Below, piece by piece: positions 3,450-42,725 of a stretch of 56,966 nucleotides of DNA. The notes under the pieces are model-generated. The model was not told the origin of the DNA. It saw nothing but the letters and a program-made list of their open reading frames with translations, and made no database searches. Each line of letters opens with the position of its first letter. Positions within the stretch are counted from its first letter, which is position 1. Location of the stretch: the IMG/VR virus record IMGVR_UViG_3300012078_000003, one strand, 5' to 3'. The position numbers and the translations under genes were made by a program. This DNA comes from a virus.

Positions 3450-3669
3450 TTTGCCCTCCTAAATCCATAGGCTCCTGCCCTATCTTATTAATCGCCACCC
3501 TGTAGCCGAACGGACGCAGTATACGCTCCGCTGTCTCCATGTTTGGTGAAATACCACCATTGCATATTCGACTGATTGTGGAGGCCGCCACGCCTGTCTG
3601 ACGCGATATTTCACGTATGGTGAGGCCGGTGGTTATTTGGGCTTGTAGGAATGCTTGTAGGGTGTTCAT
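3442..3669 (-). CDS. HTH DNA-binding protein (Cro/XRE-like)
   Basis: LTIREISRQTGVAASTISRICNG helix-turn-helix. ATGA overlap with the upstream gene. Confidence 0.75.
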   Translation of the reverse strand: MNTLQAFLQAQITTGLTIREISRQTGVAASTISRICNGGISPNMETAERILRPFGYRVAINKIGQEPMDLGGQNE

Positions 3670-4139: not shown

Positions 4140-4330
4140 GATTTAGTTTTGAGGGCTGATTCTTGACACTTCACATCTGAATTCCTGCTTCAACGATCGT
4201 TGCTGGCTGGCCCAGTCTTACATAATCTCCACAGGCGTAAAATCCGGCGTGTCCCGCCGTACTCAATTTATGATTACGCGCTTAACAGGCGCAAGCCCTC
4301 ATTTAGAATATTGGTGGCAGCATTAATATC
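4140..4330 (-). ncRNA. Candidate omega/reRNA of TnpB (3' end of tnpB plus right end)
   Basis: Position rule for TnpB guide RNAs. Local helices GGCG/CGCC and palindrome CAACGATCGTTG downstream of the stop. Confidence 0.4.
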
Positions 4331-5392
4331 CCTATCGTGAATTGTATCACATTCTGGACATTGCCATTTCCTCACCGCCAAGTCTTTAGTACCTTTGTTC
4401 TGATAGCCGCAACGGGAGCAAGTCTGGCTTGATGGGAAGAATTTGTCTACCCTGATAAGTGCCTTGTGCTGCCATTCACACTTGTACGAAAGCTGGCGGA
4501 TAAACTCATTCCACGATGCATCATTGATAGACTTTGCAAGCTTATGGTTCTTTATCATATTTTTCACTCGTAAATCTTCAATGCAGATAATGTCATAATC
4601 CTTGACAAATTGGGTTGATAGTTTATGTAGGGAATCGTTCCGCTGGTTTGCCACGCGCTCATACAGCTGCGCAACCTTGATCCTTGCCTTATTTCTGTTT
4701 TTGCTACCCTTTGATTTTCGGGATAGCGCACGTTGGGCTTTGGCAAGCTTCTTTTCTGATTGTCGTAAAAACTGGTGGTTTTGAAATTTCTGTCCATCGG
4801 AAGTAATTGCAAAATCCTTTAAGCCTAAATCAATTCCAATTGTCGCCCCAGTGGATTCATATTGTAAAATCTCGACATCGGTACAGCAAATAGAAACAAA
4901 ATATTTGCCGCTTGGGTTTTGGGATATGGTTGCAGAAAGAATGCGTCCATTGACCTGTCTTGAAATTGCGCATTTTGTTTCCCCTATCTTTGGAAGTTTA
5001 ATCTTTCCATCTTTTAAGTAAATGCTATTTTTAACATTTCTGGTTTTATATGATTTTTTAGAAGTCTTTTTTGATTTAAATTTCGGAAATCCAGGCTTTA
5101 AAGATTTTGATTTTACCCTATTGAAGAAGTTTAAAAAAGATTGATCGAGGTTTTTTAGGGATTGCGTCAGTGGAAAACAATCAACTTCCTTCAGCCACGG
5201 CAATTCATTTTTTAGTTGAGTAAGCATTGCATCCGTTTCATAGAAGCGAATAGTTTTTCCATTTTCCTTATATGCATTAATCCTAGTGGCGAGAAAATAA
5301 TTATAAACAAATCGACAACAACCAAATGTTTTGTGAACCAAGACTTCCTGTTCCTTGCTTGGATATATGCGGAACTTATATGTCTTTTCCAT
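4274..5392 (-). CDS. tnpB: TnpB RNA-guided nuclease (IS605 OrfB family)
   Basis: N-terminal [11 protein letters not shown]. RuvC D-E-D motifs [21 protein letters not shown] and HDRDINAA. Zn ribbon CSRCG...CPEC. Confidence 0.92.
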
Positions 5393-5454
5393 CAAAATTC
5401 CTTTCACATGGGAAGGGGTAGGGGCCTATCCTCATTACCCCTCTTTCAATCATT

Positions 5455-6853: not shown

Positions 6854-8074
6854 TTAATATTTCAACTTAGAAACACTCGCCTTTTTATCTTCAATATCTA
6901 CTGTATCATATATCTGAGTCGTGGATATACTCTTATGTCTGAGGAGTTCTCGAATATCATCCAGGTCGACTCCGCTTCGCCTTAGATATGTGGCAAACGT
7001 ATGGCGCATTTTATGCGGTGTCAGTCTTGGGATTAAGTCAGGATCAATCTTCTCCCCTATCTTCTTGCTTTCCTCCTCCGCCCTCTCGGTAATTTTACAA
7101 TTCAAATCATCAAAGAATTTATAATATAGTTCATCGTAGGATGCATGTGTGTGATGCTCGTAAATAACATGCGTTTCCCCTAAATCGTCCTTGAATTTTA
7201 CAGGTCGGCTCATAACATATACGCCCGTCTTTGGTATTTTATCCAGCAGCGGATCAAGGGCGGTGTTGTATGTGACTATGCTTTCATCTTCTGATTTGGT
7301 CCCGGGTGTGATCTCGTGTTTAAATACTCCAGGCTTTTCTTCTTCCTCAACCAGTGTTAAGGATCGCCGAATGTGAAACGTATGATTTTCTTTGTCACGG
7401 TCAACCCACATAAGCCCAAAGCCCTCACCTGGACGCAGGCCAGAGTAAAGATACAAAGCGATAAACGGTCCGTATTCATGCTCACTTAAATATTTTACAA
7501 TGGCGGACATATGATTGCGCTTAAATACGGATGGAGCCTTTGGTGATTTCGGCGGAAGTTCAATTCCAACAACTGGATTCTGCTTACATAATCGGTTTTC
7601 GATGGCAGTTTTGAAGATTCCCTCAAGCGCCCATAATAGTTTTTCTGCGGATGACCGGGACAGTGGCTTTCCTTCTGGATATTTTCTATTAGGTTTTGTT
7701 TTGGAATCTCTAAAAAGTTTTTTGATGTGTGCCGGCCGTACATCGTTGAGTTTCAATTTACCGATTTCTGGATTAATATGACGCGAAATATACATCTTAT
7801 AATCTTTGTACGCGCCGGCCGATTTTCCTGGTTCTGGTTTTTTGTATAACTCAACCCAATGCTCGGCCCATTGCGTGACGGTTTTGACTTTCTCGATTGT
7901 AACCTTATGTTCCGAGGCCAACCACTCCTTATGCGCCTTTCTACAGGCCGTAGGCGACGACGCGGTAAATGACTTGCGAACGGTTACGCCGTCGATTTCG
8001 TCCACTGTGCGCAGCCGGTAACTGCCGCTTGGAAGTTTCGTTATAGTTCCCTCGCCGTTTGCTTTGCGTCCCAT
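6854..8074 (-). CDS. int: Tyrosine integrase
   Basis: C-terminal HKMRHTFATYL...LLRHKSISTTQIYD (R-H-R-Y catalytic pattern). Adjacent to attP. Confidence 0.93.
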   Translation of the reverse strand: MGRKANGEGTITKLPSGSYRLRTVDEIDGVTVRKSFTASSPTACRKAHKEWLASEHKVTIEKVKTVTQWAEHWVELYKKPEPGKSAGAYKDYKMYISRHINPEIGKLKLNDVRPAHIKKLFRDSKTKPNRKYPEGKPLSRSSAEKLLWALEGIFKTAIENRLCKQNPVVGIELPPKSPKAPSVFKRNHMSAIVKYLSEHEYGPFIALYLYSGLRPGEGFGLMWVDRDKENHTFHIRRSLTLVEEEEKPGVFKHEITPGTKSEDESIVTYNTALDPLLDKIPKTGVYVMSRPVKFKDDLGETHVIYEHHTHASYDELYYKFFDDLNCKITERAEEESKKIGEKIDPDLIPRLTPHKMRHTFATYLRRSGVDLDDIRELLRHKSISTTQIYDTVDIEDKKASVSKLKY

Positions 8075-8777: not shown

Positions 8778-9008
8778 ATGAAAGAAGTGGACAACATGAA
8801 CGACGTAAAGACACATTCTGGGGCGGTTTCCGTCTTAAATGAAGAGGAGGATTTGGTACAATCTAGGGGAAATTCGGATATAAAGCACACCAAAAAAGAA
8901 ATTATACAATGCGCTATTCGCCAAAACTTTACGCAGGCAGAATGGGAACGCAGAAAAGTAGTTCTATATATCGCTCTCCAAAACTGCCTTTGCAAGTTTG
9001 ACGATTAA
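8778..9008 (+). CDS. Doubtful small ORF in an AT-rich spacer
   Basis: Track ORF 8763-9008 with no good SD. Its 3' end is the antisense shadow of 8964-9308. Confidence 0.25.
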   Translation: MKEVDNMNDVKTHSGAVSVLNEEEDLVQSRGNSDIKHTKKEIIQCAIRQNFTQAEWERRKVVLYIALQNCLCKFDD

Positions 9009-9308
9009 ATCAAGTTTGCCTTTGGGTATTTCTCCATACTGATTATATAATGCATCAAACATATTATTAATGTCGCTCTCGATTTCTTCGGGGGCGACTT
9101 TTTCATTTGCATATGGTTCTGATATCGCGTCAACGGGATATCCTAGGCAGTTAACTATCGCTTGAACTGTGGCATATGCTGGATTTTTTGTTTGCCCTGA
9201 AAATAATTTATCTACTGTGCTCTTGGGTATTCCAGACATATTAGCTATTTCCTCATTTGTCTTACCGGACGCCTTTTTTATTTGGTTTAAACGTTCCAGC
9301 CAATTCAT
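8964..9308 (-). CDS. XRE-family HTH repressor (CI candidate, adjacent to the switch)
   Basis: AGGAGG SD 8 nt before ATG 9308. NEEIANMSGIPKSTVDKLFSGQTKNP. Confidence 0.85.
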   Translation of the reverse strand: MNWLERLNQIKKASGKTNEEIANMSGIPKSTVDKLFSGQTKNPAYATVQAIVNCLGYPVDAISEPYANEKVAPEEIESDINNMFDALYNQYGEIPKGKLDLIVKLAKAVLESDI

Positions 9309-9330
9309 AGTTAGCACCTCCTTTTCCTAC

Positions 9331-9835: not shown

Positions 9836-10906
9836 ATGCCAGACATAAGGCGCGGCGACATTTATTACATACGCAGCGACTACCCGCCCACCGGCAGCGA
9901 ACAGGGAGCCAACAGGCCGGGCGTTATCGTCTCAAATGATATGTGTAATAAGTATTCTCCCGTTGCCAGCATTGTATATCTGACTACTCGCAAGGCGAAT
10001 AAACCATTGCCTACCCATGTGCATATAAGATGTACGCACCCATCCATAGCCTTATGCGAACAGGTGCATTCTGTATCTAAGGAGCGTCTTGAAGGCTATA
10101 TGGGACATATCACGGAACAGGAAAAGCGCGAGATTGACGAAGCCTTGAAGGTTTCGCTGGCGATTAAAGATGAAGGGGTGGTGCAGATGAGCGAGTTGGC
10201 AATTATCAACAAAGACGGAATCCTTACAATCGACAGCCGAGAAGTGGCCGAGATGGTAGGCAAGGAGCATTTTTCACTTATGCGCGATATACGAACCTAT
10301 TGCGGATATTTAGGAAAATCCAAAACTGTATGCTCCGAGTTTTTTATCGAAAGCGAATACAGGAGCGAGCAAAACAAAACTATGCCTTGCTATCTTATCA
10401 CCCGAAAAGGCTGTGACATGGTTGCCAATAAGATGACTGGTGAAAGAGGCATATTATTCACCGCAACCTATGTCAACAGGTTCCATGAAATGGAACAGCG
10501 CCTTTCAACTCCACAGTTGCCGCAAAATTACCTTGAAGCTCTCAAAGCCCTTGTTGCCAGCGAGGAAGAAAAGCAAGCCTTGCAGACTGAAAATCAAAAT
10601 ATGCTCCCAAAGGCTGCGTTTTTCGATGCAGTGGCCAATAGCAAGGACGCTATCGAAATGGCAGCAGTGGCAAAGGTTCTGGCGATTCCGGGATATGGTC
10701 GTAACAATCTATTTGAATTCCTGCGCAATCATAAGGTGTTGCAAGAAAACAATCAGCCGTATCAAAGACACATAGATGCAGGAAGATTCCGGCTTGTAGA
10801 GCAGAAATACAATAAGCCTGATGGCAGCACTCACATAAGCATAAAAACGCTTGTCTATCAAAAGGGTGTAGATTATATCAGACGGCTGGTGACGCAAGCC
10901 AGTTAA
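9836..10906 (+). CDS. Fusion ORF: MazF/PemK-like toxin domain + Rha + KilAC (antirepressor) domains
   Basis: RGDIYYI..GSEQGANRPGVIVSND..LPTHV..ALCEQVHSVSKERL (MazF), then DSREVAEMVGKEHFSLMRDI (Rha), then LPQNYLEALKAL...PKAAFFDAV (KilAC). Internal SD + ATG at 10187. Confidence 0.85.
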   Translation: MPDIRRGDIYYIRSDYPPTGSEQGANRPGVIVSNDMCNKYSPVASIVYLTTRKANKPLPTHVHIRCTHPSIALCEQVHSVSKERLEGYMGHITEQEKREIDEALKVSLAIKDEGVVQMSELAIINKDGILTIDSREVAEMVGKEHFSLMRDIRTYCGYLGKSKTVCSEFFIESEYRSEQNKTMPCYLITRKGCDMVANKMTGERGILFTATYVNRFHEMEQRLSTPQLPQNYLEALKALVASEEEKQALQTENQNMLPKAAFFDAVANSKDAIEMAAVAKVLAIPGYGRNNLFEFLRNHKVLQENNQPYQRHIDAGRFRLVEQKYNKPDGSTHISIKTLVYQKGVDYIRRLVTQAS

Positions 10907-25134: not shown

Positions 25135-25298
25135 CCCGGCCTCCGCAGGCCGAACAAATTGAATAATTACGTCTCGCATTCGCGGGGCGTTTTTATATCC
25201 CAAAATTCGGGGATAGAGTAGCGCACTCGAAAAACGGAAAGCCTTATCCGTCCTCCCCGGATTAAATTTTAAGGCGTTACGGAAAGGCGGTAATATGA

Positions 25299-37007: not shown

Positions 37008-37034
37008 ATATACAAACGAATGGAGGAAATGAGG

Positions 37035-37604
37035 ATGAAGAAAATTGTCAGCCTGTTTCAAAGAAATTATGATGGCGACCGCCTTATTCGTGACGAAATT
37101 GTTCCCGGCGCAGAATGGGTTGTTGCTGGTGAGGGCATTGCTACCCGAAAATACGACGGCACATGTTGCATGATTAAGGATGGCGAATTGTACGCTCGTT
37201 ATGATGTGAAGAAAGGCCGAAAGCGGCCTAATGGCTTTATTCCAGCACAAGAACCTGACCCCGTTACCGGACACTGGCCCGGATGGGTAAGATGTAGCCG
37301 GGATGATAAGCAGTGGAAATATCACTTTGAAGCGTTGGATGATTTACAGAACAGCGCAAGCGGCTATGTATTTGAGGATGGCACTTACGAATTGTGCGGC
37401 CCTAAAATCCAAAGCAATCCAGAAGGGTTTGAAAAGCATGTTTTGATTCCTCATGATGGCGCAATTCGTTTCCATGACGCTCCCCGGGATTATGAGGGAT
37501 TAAAAGCATGGTTCCCGGGTAAAGACATTGAAGGCATTGTATGGCACCATCCAGACGGACGCATGGTGAAAATCAAAAAGAAAGATTTTGGGCTGAAACG
37601 ATAA
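37035..37604 (+). CDS. ATP-dependent RNA/DNA-ligase-like nucleotidyltransferase
   Basis: Motif I KYDGT, motif IV EGIVWH, motif V MVKIKKKDF. Confidence 0.75.
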   Translation: MKKIVSLFQRNYDGDRLIRDEIVPGAEWVVAGEGIATRKYDGTCCMIKDGELYARYDVKKGRKRPNGFIPAQEPDPVTGHWPGWVRCSRDDKQWKYHFEALDDLQNSASGYVFEDGTYELCGPKIQSNPEGFEKHVLIPHDGAIRFHDAPRDYEGLKAWFPGKDIEGIVWHHPDGRMVKIKKKDFGLKR

Positions 37605-37823: not shown

Positions 37824-38242
37824 ATCAACCGATAATTGAATTTAAATCACAGGAAGAACTTGACGCTTGCCTTGCTGAATGGCAGGAGCGTCTTTTTCTT
37901 TCGGATTGGATTATTAAAGCAGCATTATCAGACCCTGGCACGTTGGCAATAAACGGCGAACGGATGCGTGGCATAAATGAGTATCAAGCGGCCATTAAGA
38001 CGGCATCGGTAAGGATTGAGCGGCTAACCATTGATACGGAAGATCGGATAGCGACAGGATGCCACGAATTGACATTGGTGCACGAATTATTGCATTGCAA
38101 ATTTATATTGGCAGACAACGCGCCGAATACCACCGAGGGCGGATTCATGGGGCTTGCAGAGCATCAGTTAATAGAGCAAATGGCAAAATCCCTAATCATG
38201 GCAAAGTACGGAATCAAGTTTGGTTGGTTTAAAAACTTTTAA
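37820..38242 (+). CDS. HExxH-motif protein (putative metallopeptidase)
   Basis: LTLVHELLHCKF. Confidence 0.65.
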   Translation: MNQPIIEFKSQEELDACLAEWQERLFLSDWIIKAALSDPGTLAINGERMRGINEYQAAIKTASVRIERLTIDTEDRIATGCHELTLVHELLHCKFILADNAPNTTEGGFMGLAEHQLIEQMAKSLIMAKYGIKFGWFKNF

Positions 38243-38256
38243 GGGCGGTGGTGGAG

Positions 38257-38622
38257 ATGAATATACTTGATACCGTCAAAACCCTACTTGGCATAACGGA
38301 CGATTCTAAGGACGCGATTCTGACGCTGTATATCGGCATTGTAACGCAAGGCGTACTGAATGCCACTAACCGCCAAGAACTGCCCGCAGAACTCGAATAT
38401 GAGGCCGCTATGATGGTATTCGATATGTATAACGAATTGTCCAATACGAGCGGCACAACAGGTAAGGCAACCTCGGTCAGCGAAGCCGGAAGAAGCGTCA
38501 ACTTCGATACATCACAGGCACAATTATGGGCAGAGAATCGCTTGAAGCAGCGAGAATCGCAGATACCTAGTTTTCGATTGCCGTACAGGATAACGGAGAG
38601 GGGGCGGCGGGATGGCGTTTGA
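38257..38622 (+). CDS. Head-tail connector (gp6-like)
   Basis: MNILDTVKTLLGITDDSKDAILTLYI pattern. Confidence 0.75.
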   Translation: MNILDTVKTLLGITDDSKDAILTLYIGIVTQGVLNATNRQELPAELEYEAAMMVFDMYNELSNTSGTTGKATSVSEAGRSVNFDTSQAQLWAENRLKQRESQIPSFRLPYRITERGRRDGV

Positions 38623-39004
38623 CTTTGGGCAGATTGGCGGCATTATCGGCGATTATATGGACACCGACGAAATTGACATAGGCCGTTCGCAACTTATCAC
38701 GTTGCCGGATGGCTCAACTACCGTCACAGACCCTAAGACCCCGATATACACAAATGTGAAATGTCACCTATCCTTCAATTCCACCGATAACCCCGATCCG
38801 GTCAGCGTGGGCAGCGTCCCTATAATCATGAGCATCACCATTAATTGCCCTGTCGGTGTGGATTTGCAGAATGCAGACTATATCATGGCGCGTAAGCTTG
38901 CAGCAGATGGTACGGTCTTGGAAGAATACCAGGGGACTATAGGTGCGCCCGCAACCAGTCAAAGCAGGCAATCGGCGGTGATGGAAATGAGGCAAGCGGT
39001 GTAG
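38612..39004 (+). CDS. Putative head-tail adaptor/closure protein
   Basis: Position. Track ORF. Confidence 0.6.
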   Translation: MAFDFGQIGGIIGDYMDTDEIDIGRSQLITLPDGSTTVTDPKTPIYTNVKCHLSFNSTDNPDPVSVGSVPIIMSITINCPVGVDLQNADYIMARKLAADGTVLEEYQGTIGAPATSQSRQSAVMEMRQAV

Positions 39005-39009
39005 ATAGT

Positions 39010-39219
39010 TTATATTTTCGTTCCGTCTGGAAATTCAAAGACAGCGGTATAAACCGCGCCGAGGGCGGCGGCAATCCGCTCTAATTCTTCCATAGAAAAT
39101 GTTTCACGCTTTAGCTTTTGATTAAAGTTTGAGGGTGTCATGCCTATTAGACGCGCTAAGGCGGCTTGGCTTATTCCCTTATATGCAACAGCCATATTGA
39201 TTTTTTGCTCCATTGTCAT
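39010..39219 (-). CDS. XRE-family HTH regulator embedded in the structural module
   Basis: GGGGTGA SD 5 nt before ATG 39219. ISQAALARLIGMTPSNFNQKLKRE. Confidence 0.8.
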   Translation of the reverse strand: MTMEQKINMAVAYKGISQAALARLIGMTPSNFNQKLKRETFSMEELERIAAALGAVYTAVFEFPDGTKI

Positions 39220-39239
39220 TGAAATCACCCCCATTAAAC

Positions 39240-39364
39240 AGTATAAGCGATAATCAAGGCGTTGTCAAGTGATTGCTGTACGTTATAAATGTATCAGTAA
39301 AAAATATTTAGAGAAATGTTGATAAAACACTTGACAACATTAAGCGATTGCTGTATACTATAAT
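39240..39364. promoter_or_regulatory. Divergent promoter/operator region of the embedded cassette
   Basis: Leftward TTGACA-17-TATACT (39268-39240). Rightward TTGTCA-16-TATAAA (39262-39289) and TTGACA-17-TATACT (39331-39359). Each rightward spacer carries GATTGCTGTA. Confidence 0.65.
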
Positions 39365-39402
39365 CACAGGAACAAAACAAAGTGATTATGGAGGGTATGA
39401 AC

Positions 39403-39666
39403 ATGATGAACACAGAAAAAGCCAAGAGAATCATTCAAGCGATAAACGAGACTGAGCGGCAACTTGAAAGGGCAACCAAGAAATATAACGATTCCATAGC
39501 TTGTTTAAAAATGGACATTGCCGAAAATGCAGAATTGGGAAATCCAAAATCCGCTAACAGGGCGTGGGTTGACTATTGCAACGAAGATAAAGCGGAAATG
39601 AACCGCTACAAGGCTCATATTGACCGCCTTGCAAAGATGTTGCATGAATGCGTGGAGGGTGCATAA
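39403..39666 (+). CDS. Hypothetical helical protein
   Basis: GGAGGG SD. Several in-frame ATGs at 39388-39406. Confidence 0.65.
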   Translation: MMNTEKAKRIIQAINETERQLERATKKYNDSIACLKMDIAENAELGNPKSANRAWVDYCNEDKAEMNRYKAHIDRLAKMLHECVEGA

Positions 39667-39667
39667 A

Positions 39668-40075
39668 ATGAAGCCTATCGAAATCACAGGCGCGTCACAA
39701 AGGGTAAGCGTAAATGGCGCGGGCGAATGGTGCGCTCTTTATATGTGCCATAAATGTGGGGATGAATTCGCCTATAGCCATGAATTTTGCAGAACTGAGA
39801 AAGATGCCCGCGAAGAAAGTAACACAAGATTTGATGTGCAACAACGCAGATATTGCTATCGGTGTGGATACAAATTGACATCTCTTGATGATATTCCAGA
39901 AAGCGCTTATATTGCAGGGCTGAACGCGGAAATTGACAAATTGGAAGCTAAAAGACGCGACTTGATTGATGAAATAATTACATTGCGGAATTGCTTTGAT
40001 GGACAGCCGGAAGCCGCAAGGATTGCAATGAGTAAGGGATGGATAAGGATGATTCCTTGCGATAACGAAGAATAA
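39668..40075 (+). CDS. Zinc-ribbon + coiled-coil protein
   Basis: GGAGGG SD. CHKCG...CYRCG. Confidence 0.7.
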   Translation: MKPIEITGASQRVSVNGAGEWCALYMCHKCGDEFAYSHEFCRTEKDAREESNTRFDVQQRRYCYRCGYKLTSLDDIPESAYIAGLNAEIDKLEAKRRDLIDEIITLRNCFDGQPEAARIAMSKGWIRMIPCDNEE

Positions 40076-40084
40076 ATACAAAAG

Positions 40085-40108
40085 GCTCACCATTCGGTGG
40101 GCTTTTCT
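40085..40108 (+). terminator. Terminator of the embedded cassette
   Basis: GCTCACC-ATTC-GGTGGGC + TTTTCTT. Confidence 0.7.
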
Positions 40109-40143
40109 TATGCAAAAAGGAGGGAGCGACAATTTATGAATTA

Positions 40144-40584
40144 ATGGCAACCAGCGTCACATCTTCCCTCGGCATACGGCTCCGCGAGATATTCCCCGGC
40201 GTGACTTGGTATCGGGAGACGATACCGGCGCAACTTCTTGTTTACCCCCATTTTTTTGTGAATCAACTTACGCTTAACATTCAACCAGAGCGCCGCAACC
40301 ACTGGTGGGTAAGCTTTTTCGCCACTATGCGATATCATGTAGCCGCCGACCCTGCTAGCGTTGTAGGTTCACTACAGCAGCTGCTTGATGACGCGAGTAT
40401 AAAGTTGTTGGCGGACTTGGATTATATTTATTGGAACGGTATACCGGTGCGAATAAGCAATCTCCGAACCGAAAAAGTGGATGGTGTTTTGCATTGCTTT
40501 TGTAATATTGATGTCATGGCAACGAAGCCGATTGAACTTGATCCGTTGCAAGAGCAGCTTGAGGTTAATATTGCGCGTCCGTAA
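40144..40584 (+). CDS. Putative neck/tail-completion protein
   Basis: Position before the sheath gene. AGGAGGGAG SD. Confidence 0.6.
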   Translation: MATSVTSSLGIRLREIFPGVTWYRETIPAQLLVYPHFFVNQLTLNIQPERRNHWWVSFFATMRYHVAADPASVVGSLQQLLDDASIKLLADLDYIYWNGIPVRISNLRTEKVDGVLHCFCNIDVMATKPIELDPLQEQLEVNIARP

Positions 40585-40648
40585 GGCTAAAACCCTTGTA
40601 GTTATGCCGTTTTTGTGGTATGATTAAAGGTAGAATGGTGGTGTTTTT

Positions 40649-41311
40649 ATGGGCAGGAAGCTGAGAGATAAGACTGGGAAAACGCACACAATGAACAACG
40701 GGCTATGCGCAACCATTATCGGATATCGCAACTGGAACGATATTGACATTCAGTTTGAAAATGGTGCCATTGTTAACAATGAACAATATGGACATTTTGA
40801 ACGCGGAAACATTAAATGCCCAATGCTTATTCGGCAGATTGATGATTATGCAGAGGTCATAAATGTAAATATTGATCCAGTGGTTACGTTTATGTTGGAT
40901 GTAGAGGATTTACCAGCGCTTGGCAAATGGCTTTGGTTTAAGGATAGCAAAGGATATATAGTACGAAACGCCAATCCCGGCACCATTAGACTTCACCGCG
41001 TCATCATGAACGCTCCCCTTGATATGGACGTTGACCATAAGGATGGTAACAAACCAGATTGCCGCAAGCGTAATTTACGCATATGCACAAAAGCAGAAAA
41101 TACACGCAATCGCGCAATCCCTAATACTAATACGAGCGGATATAAAGGTGTGAATTGGGATAGGCAAAAGAGAAAGTGGCGAGCGAAGATTACAGCGAAC
41201 GAACACCGAAATCATATAGGATATTATGATACTGCAAAAGAAGCCGCCCGCGCCTACAACGAGGCCGCGCTCAAATATCATGGCGAGTTTGCAAGACTGA
41301 ACGAAATATAA
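40649..41311 (+). CDS. Free-standing HNH endonuclease with AP2 DNA-binding domain
   Basis: VDHKDGNKPDCRKRNLRICTKAENTRN, then SGYKGVNWDRQKRKWRAKI...YYDTAKEAARAYNEAALKYHGEFA. Confidence 0.88.
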   Translation: MGRKLRDKTGKTHTMNNGLCATIIGYRNWNDIDIQFENGAIVNNEQYGHFERGNIKCPMLIRQIDDYAEVINVNIDPVVTFMLDVEDLPALGKWLWFKDSKGYIVRNANPGTIRLHRVIMNAPLDMDVDHKDGNKPDCRKRNLRICTKAENTRNRAIPNTNTSGYKGVNWDRQKRKWRAKITANEHRNHIGYYDTAKEAARAYNEAALKYHGEFARLNEI

Positions 41312-41328
41312 CCCACAATCAAATAATC

Positions 41329-41360
41329 AAGCGTTCATCTTTTGGGTGGGCGCTTTTTTA
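41329..41360 (+). terminator. Terminator after the HNH-AP2 gene
   Basis: AAGCGTTC / GGGCGCTT + TTTTT. Confidence 0.7.
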
Positions 41361-41384
41361 TATCTAAATTTAAGGAGGTAAATT

Positions 41385-42725
41385 ATGAGTGGAGGACGCT
41401 GGCTTTCACAGAACAAAATCCGGCCTGGAAGTTATATAAATTTTGTTAGCGTTCCGAGGCCTACAATGACTTTGGGAGATAGAGGAATTGGGACGATGGC
41501 CCTTCCCTTGACATGGGGTAGTGAAAATTCGCTTATTGACGTTTACAGTACCGACCTACTGGACGGCGCAAGTCTATCCAAGGTAGGTGTAACGGCTTTT
41601 GACGAGGCGACAGAGCAAAGCGCGAAATTGCTGACTCTCATGCTCTCTAATTGCTATCTGGCAAAAATTTATCGGCTGGATACTGGCGGCGTTCAGGCAA
41701 CCATCACAACTGGAAGCCTTACCGCAAAAGCGAAATACCCCGGCACATTCGGGAATTCAATTACAATATCTGTTGTGGAATCTGACGGACTTTTCACGGT
41801 GACCACATTCGTTTCCGGAACAAGCCGCGACATTCAGACCGTATCTACAGTGCAGGAGCTTTCCGGCAACGCCTATGTGGAGTTTAGCGGATTCGGTGCG
41901 TTAACAGCCAATGCGGGCATTCCGCTTATCGGCGGAACAAACGGAACGTACACCGCAGCAACCGCCTATCCGAATTATCTCGCCCTTGCAAGCCGTGCCA
42001 GATGGCAGACAATGGCTGTGCCTTTCGATGGCGCAACAGTCAATGCACAAATCGCTACGTTCGTGAAGACCATGCGTGATGATGAAGGACGATATGTGCA
42101 GGTCGCGCTTGCCAATTATGATGGTGCAGATTATCACGGCGTGATTAACTCCGATTGCGGATTCAGACGCGCCGATGATGAAGTTACCGCAGATGAAGCA
42201 ACGGCGTGGGTGGCTGGGGCTACGGCGGGCGCATCTATTATTCAATCCAACACTGGCAGGGCAGTTACTGGCGCACTTTCCATATTGAATGAGCGTACCA
42301 ACTCAGAGATTATCGACGCGCTCAAGTCCGGAAAATTCATCCTATCTGCCAACCAGCGCGGCGAAATTATTGTGGAACAGGATATCAACAGCCTACACAC
42401 CTTCACGCCGGAACTGGATTATGCTTTCAGCAAAAACCGCGTATTGCGTACTTTGGACGAAATCGGAACGAGCGTTACCGATGTTTGGGAACAGTCCTAT
42501 CTTGGTAAGGTGAGCAATAACGAAAACGGTCGCATGATATTTAAGGCTGATATTGTCGGCTATCTTAACGAGCTTCAAATATTGGGTGCGATTGATGAAT
42601 TCGCGGGCGCTGATGATGTAGAAGTTATTCGCGGAACTGAGGTTGATGCTGTAGTCTGCAACATGTGGATCAAGCCCGTGGACAGCATGGAAAAATTGTA
42701 TATGACCGTAAATGTGCAGGGATAG
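41385..42725 (+). CDS. xkdK: Tail sheath protein (XkdK-like)
   Basis: 446 aa. N-terminal IRPGSYINF. Followed by the tube gene. Confidence 0.88.
   Translation: MSGGRWLSQNKIRPGSYINFVSVPRPTMTLGDRGIGTMALPLTWGSENSLIDVYSTDLLDGASLSKVGVTAFDEATEQSAKLLTLMLSNCYLAKIYRLDTGGVQATITTGSLTAKAKYPGTFGNSITISVVESDGLFTVTTFVSGTSRDIQTVSTVQELSGNAYVEFSGFGALTANAGIPLIGGTNGTYTAATAYPNYLALASRARWQTMAVPFDGATVNAQIATFVKTMRDDEGRYVQVALANYDGADYHGVINSDCGFRRADDEVTADEATAWVAGATAGASIIQSNTGRAVTGALSILNERTNSEIIDALKSGKFILSANQRGEIIVEQDINSLHTFTPELDYAFSKNRVLRTLDEIGTSVTDVWEQSYLGKVSNNENGRMIFKADIVGYLNELQILGAIDEFAGADDVEVIRGTEVDAVVCNMWIKPVDSMEKLYMTVNVQG

Follow-up and report, generated by a model that had tools for sequence, protein, structure and literature searches.

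Introduction

Morons are phage elements with their own promoter and terminator that lie between genes which are adjacent in related phages; usually they consist of one gene without a dedicated regulator, and they are partly defined by their expression from the prophage (PMC3594210). A repressor-bearing cassette within the late operon has been described for P22-like phages as "ant moron" or immI (mnt, arc, ant, sar), located at a site with ten types in sixteen genomes (PMC2629481), and Aca proteins are known to repress the strong promoters of anti-CRISPR (acr) genes (PMC6765145, PMC9410906). Here we describe a cassette in the virus record IMGVR_UViG_3300012078_000003 of IMG/VR, of which the whole stretch of 56,966 nucleotides (nt) was analysed (the window). 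The cassette is inserted into the late operon between a head-tail adaptor and a tail terminator gene and combines a minus-strand helix-turn-helix (HTH) gene, promoters in both directions, two cargo genes called A and B in the following, and a terminator. The original prediction, made from the sequence, had described such a self-contained unit and all of its parts are present, so that the cassette is real and the observation is confirmed. The comparisons below point to an accessory unit that was acquired horizontally and is autonomous in its transcription, located in a temperate myovirus-like phage of Clostridia, whose regulatory part would consist of a 69-amino-acid (aa) XRE HTH gene and a near-consensus sigma-A-type promoter firing in the direction of the operon. 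As the best explanation we propose a repressor-gated moron carrying modulators of early type, which would be released in a burst upon infection, and we give the whole chain of this proposal a probability of about 0.42.

With the morons of HK97, HK022 and lambda (PMC3594210) the cassette shares the insertion between normally adjacent genes, its own promoter and terminator, the differing base composition and the horizontal spread, but it is equipped with a divergent repressor of its own and carries two genes as cargo, and its autonomy is seen at the level of the sequence. As in P22 immI, tail-related genes of the late operon flank a cassette under the control of a repressor, whose gene is divergent from a cargo that runs with the late operon, and the site is similarly hypervariable: among ten relatives, empty sites occur besides at least seven types of cargo. 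However, the repressors of immI are ribbon-helix-helix proteins and not an HTH_26 XRE protein as found here, and its cargo, the Ant antirepressor, the Arc feedback repressor and an antisense RNA, shows no relation to A or B in sequence or fold. In addition, P22 is a podovirus of Salmonella whereas the window belongs to a myovirus-like phage of Clostridia; the likeness is architectural only.

Results and Discussion

The insertion site as a cargo hotspot

For the comparison of the insertion site we used ten IMG/VR contigs with the same adaptor and/or tail terminator (60–97% identity), onto which the proteins of the window were mapped before the junctions were read. The two genes lie 1140 nt apart in the window compared to about 18 nt in the relatives with an empty junction, namely L014, L015, L018 and L025. 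In other relatives the junction harbors a 59-aa zinc-ribbon gene (L017), a 65-aa gene (L016 and L019), a 98-aa gene (L010), a 127-aa gene (L012), a unit of two genes for 94 and 50 aa with its own promoter and terminator (L013) or 2.3 kb with collagen-like and leucine-rich-repeat genes (L022), and none of these six alternative kinds of cargo resembles that of the window. The alignment to the relatives breaks directly after the stop codon of the adaptor gene, the GC content is 0.35–0.45 across the cassette (39050–40100) compared to 0.48–0.53 in the flanks, and three contigs, assembled independently and from different samples, carry the identical cassette at the same place. A DNA similarity search with positions 38200–41400 against 50,697 GenBank phage records gave no match, and the only Rfam result for the cassette was a sub-threshold match to RsmY (18.5 bits compared to a gathering score of 57 bits).

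Judged from these alignments, the junction between adaptor and tail terminator is a hypervariable cargo hotspot. As it is empty or otherwise filled in the relatives, and as the GC content of the cassette lies below that of its flanks, the cassette is almost certainly a true insert that fits the classical moron in terms of its sequence-level definition. Both the interruption of the late operon and the existence of syntenic phages without the cassette, which the original prediction had suggested to look for, are borne out by these junctions. A moron in a late-operon hotspot is as such an ordinary and well-known kind of phage add-on.

The junction takes almost anything, other inserts are present in the late operon of the same phage (an RNA ligase and an HNH-AP2 endonuclease gene) and the cassette is known from one lineage only. 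It could thus also be passive debris of recombination, that is, an early-region fragment of another phage that was caught at a recombination-prone junction and has no selected role there. We consider this quite unlikely, as all three open reading frames (ORFs) are intact and have good ribosome-binding sites, the promoters are near-consensus and accompanied by a terminator, the cassette is the same on the three contigs from different samples, and in both cargo families columns are conserved between homologues of 50–85% identity.

Two of the filled junctions have peculiarities of their own. The two-gene cassette of L013 (4430–5000) has a TTGACA-17-TATAAT promoter with the palindrome ATACGGTATACCGTAGTAT in its spacer, and despite the unrelated cargo its right junction (TTTTCTTATGTCAAAAAGGAGGGAG) hardly differs from that of the window (TTTTCTTATGCAAAAAGGAGGGAG). 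In L022 (5392–7690) a 324-aa collagen-like protein with G-x-y repeats and a 382-aa leucine-rich-repeat/BspA-like protein are encoded in the hotspot, which are possibly virion decoration or fibre genes. Taken as a whole, the empty and variously filled junctions of such close relatives represent a clean natural experiment on the contribution of each cargo.

The HTH protein and its portable promoter module

The HTH protein is of the Cro/C1-type and matches HTH_26 of Pfam (E 3e-8, above the curated cutoff) as well as repressor families of PHROG (phrog_4583, 1e-8). It is made up of the HTH domain only and has no extra domain. A longer version of its ORF reaches position 39234. A sequence search against the PDB gave nothing significant. 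Its homologues form more than 441 clusters; 120 listed homologues are about 77–87% identical and nearly all of them are 67–80 aa long. From the hundreds of genomic contexts about 20 were inspected. Beside the HTH homologues of seven other loci (L035, L036, L039, L040, L041, L045 and L054) the block AAATATTTAGA..AAAACACTTGACAnnATTAAGnnnnTGCTGTATAAT is conserved, with the intergenic order of AAATATTTAGA, about 11 nt, and then AAAACACTTGACA-nnATTAAGnnnnTGCTGTATAAT. Usually the HTH gene is a lone gene that is divergent from co-directional cargo, while it is co-directional with its neighbours in L036. It lies antisense inside a one-direction gene array in L035, L045–L049 and the window, and at a prophage end in L041–L044, L056 and L058–L060.

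The first genes downstream of the module differ between the loci: proteins of 47 and 133 aa are encoded in L045, a 156-aa protein in L041, proteins of 139–164 aa in L040 and L054, a 151-aa zinc-ribbon protein in L038 and a PC4-like protein in L058, and the module of L056 is followed by a gene for 177 aa and by an integrase. Among the module cargo proteins that were scanned, a Pfam family was found only for the 226-aa gene of L037 (DUF739/HTH domains). Since an abundant and conserved HTH gene travels together with a conserved promoter and a variable cargo, HTH gene and promoter are, on the evidence of these loci, a portable regulatory module, with A and B being one of many cargoes. The isolated Flavonifractor phage Chenonceau has a homologue with 64% identity within its head module, which suggests Clostridia as hosts.

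The module resembles the acr-aca loci governed by Aca1 and Aca2 in having a conserved small HTH anchor with variable, tiny cargo that belongs to no family, in the strong promoter of constitutive type that is damped by the HTH protein (as proposed here), leading to a burst at entry followed by repression, and in its possible location inside structural operons. In contrast, aca genes are located downstream of acr in the same operon, whereas the HTH gene here is divergent and on the opposite strand, as is also the case in L035, L037, L038, L041 and L045. The repeats may differ as well: Aca proteins bind inverted repeats in the promoter, and here the boxes described below are direct, with the −35 contexts as an inverted repeat that is likewise a candidate operator. 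The HTH protein was matched to no named Aca family.

A small HTH gene adjoining small genes without a family might also indicate a toxin–antitoxin (TA) or abortive infection system, in which A or B is toxic and the HTH protein acts as a labile controller, so that the toxin is freed when HTH synthesis stops. A toxic product would need tight repression, and TA genes are indeed neighbours of the module in L041 and L056. However, the HTH gene is divergently transcribed and encodes an HTH domain without any toxin-neutralising domain, and no toxin family was found for A or B in Pfam or PADLOC, which is not the arrangement of a type II TA pair. As both cargo genes also exist elsewhere without the HTH gene, which a toxin would not tolerate unless otherwise controlled, we regard a TA function as very improbable.

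In addition, some of the modules share a leader. A common long leader starting with ACAAGGTTGAGGGAAGG follows the P2-type promoter of L036, L040, L041 and L054 (about 190 nt in L041) although the first genes are unrelated, and in L035, L045, L052 and L053 the shared leader is another one with a GC-rich hairpin (GTAAGGCAGGGG...CCCCTTATGAAAGGAAG). Neither of the two leader types has a match in Rfam; they are possible regulatory 5' untranslated regions. In L045 a type II hammerhead ribozyme (3475–3541, minus strand, 39.9 bits, above the gathering score) lies between small cargo genes downstream of the module.

The cargo proteins A and B

Protein A is predicted as an antiparallel two-helix hairpin by AlphaFold2 (AF2, pLDDT 94), for which the Foldseek search against the PDB revealed only generic helical hairpins (E > 0.27). 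Its family comprises nine clusters among 5.8 billion, P0008 is 99% identical to A, and there is no significant family for it in Pfam, PHROG and PADLOC; its only PADLOC result, Specificity_I (E 0.0098), comes without a matching stretch. The AF2 model of protein B (pLDDT 79) consists of an N-terminal beta-hairpin, a four-cysteine zinc ribbon, a long helix (77–110) and a variable tail. Its description as a double-CxxC zinc ribbon in the original prediction agrees with the cysteines C27, C30, C63 and C66, which are invariant in the homologues and accompanied by a conserved QQRRYC(Y/W)RCGYK motif. The B family is equally rare, with seven clusters among 5.8 billion and 20 hits of its profile among 1.84 billion representatives. 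No family was found for B in Pfam and PHROG, no hit in PADLOC-DB 2.0, no relative in IMG/VR and nothing significant with its profile among PDB sequences, and in 185,579 species genomes the profile found only a spurious match of 44 residues in Thermococcus. Thus, both effectors fall outside of the known families, as had been predicted.

The structural searches that had been suggested for both effectors could be carried out and gave only generic hairpins for A and marginal matches but no known fold for B. In the PDB the best match of B is HVO_2922 with a marginal E of 0.035 over 48 columns, and in the BFVD its N-terminal domain matches DUF1508 (7e-3) and several zinc ribbons annotated as Lar (E 0.05–0.3). 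Like B, the Lar proteins (PF14354) are small four-cysteine zinc-ribbon proteins from phage early regions, and there is a weak resemblance at the level of the fold, but B is extended by an additional beta-hairpin at the N-terminus and by a long helix at the C-terminus and does not match the PF14354 profile. Membership in the Lar family was rejected, as Pfam gave no match at E ≤ 0.1 and hhalign against the 69-aa Lar protein of L031, used as reference (PF14354, 4.8e-14), gave a probability of 2.4%. Likewise rejected were a relationship of B to the zinc-ribbon cargo of the L038 module (hhalign probability 4%) and to two neighbours of A homologues, the gene after A in L002 and the 121-aa gene before A in L008, neither of which was matched by tblastn with B; the latter gene has no Pfam family.

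Both proteins are small, soluble and non-enzymatic: they lack a hydrophobic segment, and no enzymatic, nucleoside triphosphatase (NTPase) or membrane domain was detected in either of them. Each of them occurs without the HTH gene in other phages. In L001 the A homologue takes the second place in an operon divergent from a 77-aa ribbon-helix-helix-like gene beside an integrase. In L008 one gene separates the A homologue from a divergent HTH_26 gene upstream, and HTH_17, Gam and ERF genes follow. The A homologues of L002 and L009 lie within long arrays of small genes on the same strand. The B homologue of L031 is found among a RecT-like gene, SSB, a true Lar-family gene located three genes upstream, DUF5131 and a C5-methylase, and that of L003 adjoins DUF7448, DUF5131 and DUF4417. 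These neighbourhoods are lytic early or DNA-metabolism regions that are rich in counter-defence genes, and not prophage-expressed islands. We also considered whether the HTH of L008 is of the same family as that of the window, which was rejected as BLASTP gave no alignment. The unit of L001 (5404–6260) is in itself another repressor-gated one, in which the A homologue is 85% identical and the promoters are full of ATGTACATGTACA / GAACATGTAT palindromes.

The location of A homologues at early switch regions beside small repressors (L001, L008) would also fit a secondary immunity of the immI type. Here A and/or B would be small antirepressors or regulators acting on the HTH_3 repressor of the phage itself (8964–9317) or on the repressors of resident prophages, and the HTH protein would play the role of Mnt. 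The layout is like that of the "ant moron", with a divergent small repressor and co-directional cargo between tail genes at a site of high flux (PMC2629481), and also the module of L056, facing a 177-aa gene and an integrase, is in agreement with such a function. On the other hand, A and B are unlike ANT/KilAC, Rha, Bro or other antirepressor families, and the phage already has a Rha-ANT protein (9836–10906), which leaves this explanation unlikely.

Promoters, putative operators and the proposed regulation

The intergenic region 39220–39402 separates the HTH gene from gene A. The promoter scan identified two promoters in it that match 11 of 12 consensus positions, the HTH promoter TTGACA(39268–39263)-17-TATACT(39245–39240) on the minus strand and P2, TTGACA(39331)-17-TATACT(39359), in rightward direction; the HTH ORF is preceded by GGGGGTGA. 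No further P2-type promoter exists elsewhere in the window. Two rightward promoters had been predicted, of which P2 is the well supported one. The sequence of P1 is present as well (TTGTCA at 39262, a spacer of 16 nt, TATAAA at 39289) but it is the weakest element of the cassette: it is absent from related modules and was missed by the promoter scan because its −10 element lacks the final T. The −35 elements of P1 and the HTH promoter overlap back-to-back.

The sequence GATTGCTGTA, which had been proposed as an operator, occurs in exactly two exact copies in the 57 kb, one in the spacer of each rightward promoter at 39271–39280 (box 1) and 39346–39355 (box 2), while copies with one mismatch are found in the window at chance frequency. 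The repeat extends to 22 nt with 82% identity. Box 2 coincides with the conserved ..TGCTGTA.. of the P2 spacer, the HTH promoter carries a related GATTATCGCT at the same place, and box 1 together with P1 looks like a cassette-specific local duplication. The only inverted repeat is formed by the −35 contexts GTTGTCAAGTG / CACTTGACAAC. These contexts and the AAATATTTAGA block are operator candidates as good as the box. An action of the HTH protein at other sites in the phage was considered and dropped, as the window contains a single P2-type promoter and the boxes with one mismatch are at chance level.

Based on these data we propose the following model for the repressor-gated moron. A and B would have been recruited as cargo from the early-gene regions of phages. 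The HTH protein, expressed from its own strong promoter, would bind to the shared intergenic region and throttle P2 (and P1), perhaps also its own gene. On entry of the DNA into a naive cell, a burst of A and B would take place before the HTH protein has built up, and in the lysogen both would be held low. Late in the lytic cycle, read-through from the late operon would transcribe A and B again and oppose the transcription of the HTH gene. Such a control would follow that of anti-CRISPR promoters by Aca proteins (PMC6765145, PMC9410906) and that of ant by Mnt and Arc in P22 immI (PMC2629481). A and B, the latter with a putatively dimerising helix, would be soluble binding proteins that most likely modulate a target of the host, of its defence or of a resident prophage early in infection, and would less likely be enzymes or membrane exclusion proteins. 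Repression by the HTH protein, the timing of expression and the class of the target are those parts of the model that we infer.

Several observations weigh against this proposal. The two boxes are direct repeats and not palindromes, and L052/L053 carry 33 nt that are identical to P2 of the window including the box, yet beside an HTH with 58% identity that has TSPSNLNQKVKRNT compared to MTPSNFNQKLKRET. Because an identical P2 stretch is thereby paired with a differing recognition helix, the idea of a covariation between recognition helix and P2 spacer, which would have backed the box as operator, had to be abandoned. The box may thus be intrinsic to the promoter, and from the predicted operator only the two exact copies, one per rightward spacer, can be retained as a fact. 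Furthermore, A and B occur together only in the phage lineage of the window (three near-identical contigs), and copies of the HTH module at prophage ends adjoin RelB/YafQ, ParE and Schlafen/AlbA (HATPase) genes, which fits prophage-expressed islands too.

The latter neighbourhoods are also an argument for a defence or superinfection exclusion system, in which the cassette promoters would be on in the lysogen, A and/or B would block incoming phages and the HTH protein would set the level of expression. In addition, the moron architecture is classically tied to fitness genes expressed by the prophage (PMC3594210), and the HTH protein has weak matches to the PADLOC models PDC-M64C (1.2e-4) and control protein (9.5e-4). 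However, A and B match no PADLOC model and are devoid of the domains mentioned above, their homologues are found in lytic early arrays and not in prophage-expressed islands, and a dedicated repressor over near-consensus promoters suggests that the cargo is normally kept down. This explanation is doubtful in our view. From the functional assignment of the original prediction the accessory cassette with effectors outside of known families can be kept, while a lysogen-expressed defence, exclusion or TA-like function is the less likely reading. For the repressor-gated moron, the near-consensus promoters under a dedicated repressor point to a gated rather than a constitutive expression in the prophage.

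Layout of the cassette and the rest of the phage

The features of the cassette and its flanking genes are summarized in Table 1. A and B are separated by 1 nt, and each has a GGAGGG ribosome-binding site 7–8 nt upstream. The terminator hairpin (40081–40106) with its T-run has a folding energy of −15.9 kcal/mol (z −5.0), and 0 of 200 shuffled sequences were as good.

Table 1: Features of the cassette and the genes flanking it in the window.
Feature	Position	Strand	Evidence
Head-tail adaptor/head-closure gene, 130 aa, left flank	38612..39004	+	phrog_615, E 1.3e-3
XRE/Cro-type HTH gene, 69 aa, antisense to the late operon	39010..39219	-	HTH_26
HTH-gene promoter, TTGACA-17-TATACT	39240..39268	-	11/12 consensus match
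P1, doubtful additional rightward promoter, TTGTCA-16-TATAAA, with box 1	39262..39289	+	sequence
Block with the conserved cargo promoter: AAATATTTAGA (AT-rich) followed by AAAACACTTGACA-17-TATACT (P2), box 2 in the spacer	39300..39359	+	
Gene A, 87 aa	39403..39666	+	rare unnamed family
Gene B, 135 aa	39668..40075	+	rare unnamed family
Intrinsic terminator: A-tract, 11-bp stem, T-run	40081..40110	+	folding
Tail terminator gene, right flank	40132..40584	+	PF20765, 1.8e-9

In IMG/VR relatives the adaptor gene is 90–97% and the tail terminator gene 71–94% identical to that of the window. The latter had been labeled as a neck gene, which turned out to be wrong. Further to the left an RNA ligase and a gp6-like connector gene are found, and further to the right an HNH-AP2 endonuclease and a sheath gene. 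The first ATG of the tail terminator gene is at 40144, but the N-terminus is conserved upstream of it, with ..T-I-YEL-M-ATSVTS in the window compared to M-K-YEL-I-ATSVTS in L025 (1484–1560). A possible ATT start at 40132, 6 nt past a GGAGGG, is the only plausible start that retains the conserved YEL residues, and an ATG at 40137 opens a mini-ORF of 2 codons (ATGAATTAATG) that overlaps the ATG at 40144.

As an integrase (6854–8074), an HTH_3 repressor (8964–9317; 117 aa) and the Rha/ANT protein are encoded, the window is, by its gene content, a temperate phage. The latter protein (9836–10906, plus strand, 356 aa) is located beside the lysogeny switch and represents an unusual fusion, in which a toxin domain of the PemK/MazF-like kind (E 1.9e-22) is joined to Rha (1.7e-25) and to an antirepressor domain, KilAC/ANT (5.4e-28). 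To the left of the integrase the phage carries an IS605 OrfB/TnpB (Cas12f-like) gene (4274–5407, minus strand), and at 25206–25274 (plus strand) Rfam identified the small RNA int-alpA above its gathering score (51.7 bits, E 7e-8). Two further inserts are present in the late operon, a 194-aa RNA-ligase-like gene (37020–37604; phrog_14301, 1e-80) that is absent from all relatives mapped, and the HNH-AP2 endonuclease gene (40649–41311), which is found at the same place in L019, L021 and L022 with about 53–55% identity.

Conclusion

In summary, the late operon of this Clostridia phage probably harbors a repressor-gated moron at a hypervariable junction, with an HTH gene and promoter that are shared by many loci and a cargo of two proteins that appear to be of early type. 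A broader reading, which we regard as rather unlikely, would take the HTH gene and its promoter as an Aca-like general anchor marking a reservoir of early-burst genes for counter-defence or host takeover in phages of gut and anaerobic Clostridia, with A and B as two new families of inhibitors. If this were true, B could perhaps be a restriction-alleviating zinc-ribbon dimer. Since the repressor/promoter pair is common to many different phages, the HTH protein of a resident prophage would then shut off the same cassettes also when they arrive on another phage, resulting in a cross-regulation between phages. Apart from this, the cassette brings to light two very rare protein families, one forming a helical hairpin and the other a zinc ribbon with a coiled coil, that are matched by no database. 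With this knowledge the HTH anchor could guide a guilt-by-association mining for anti-defence, antirepressor and defence genes in phages of anaerobic Firmicutes, from which few such accessory genes are known.

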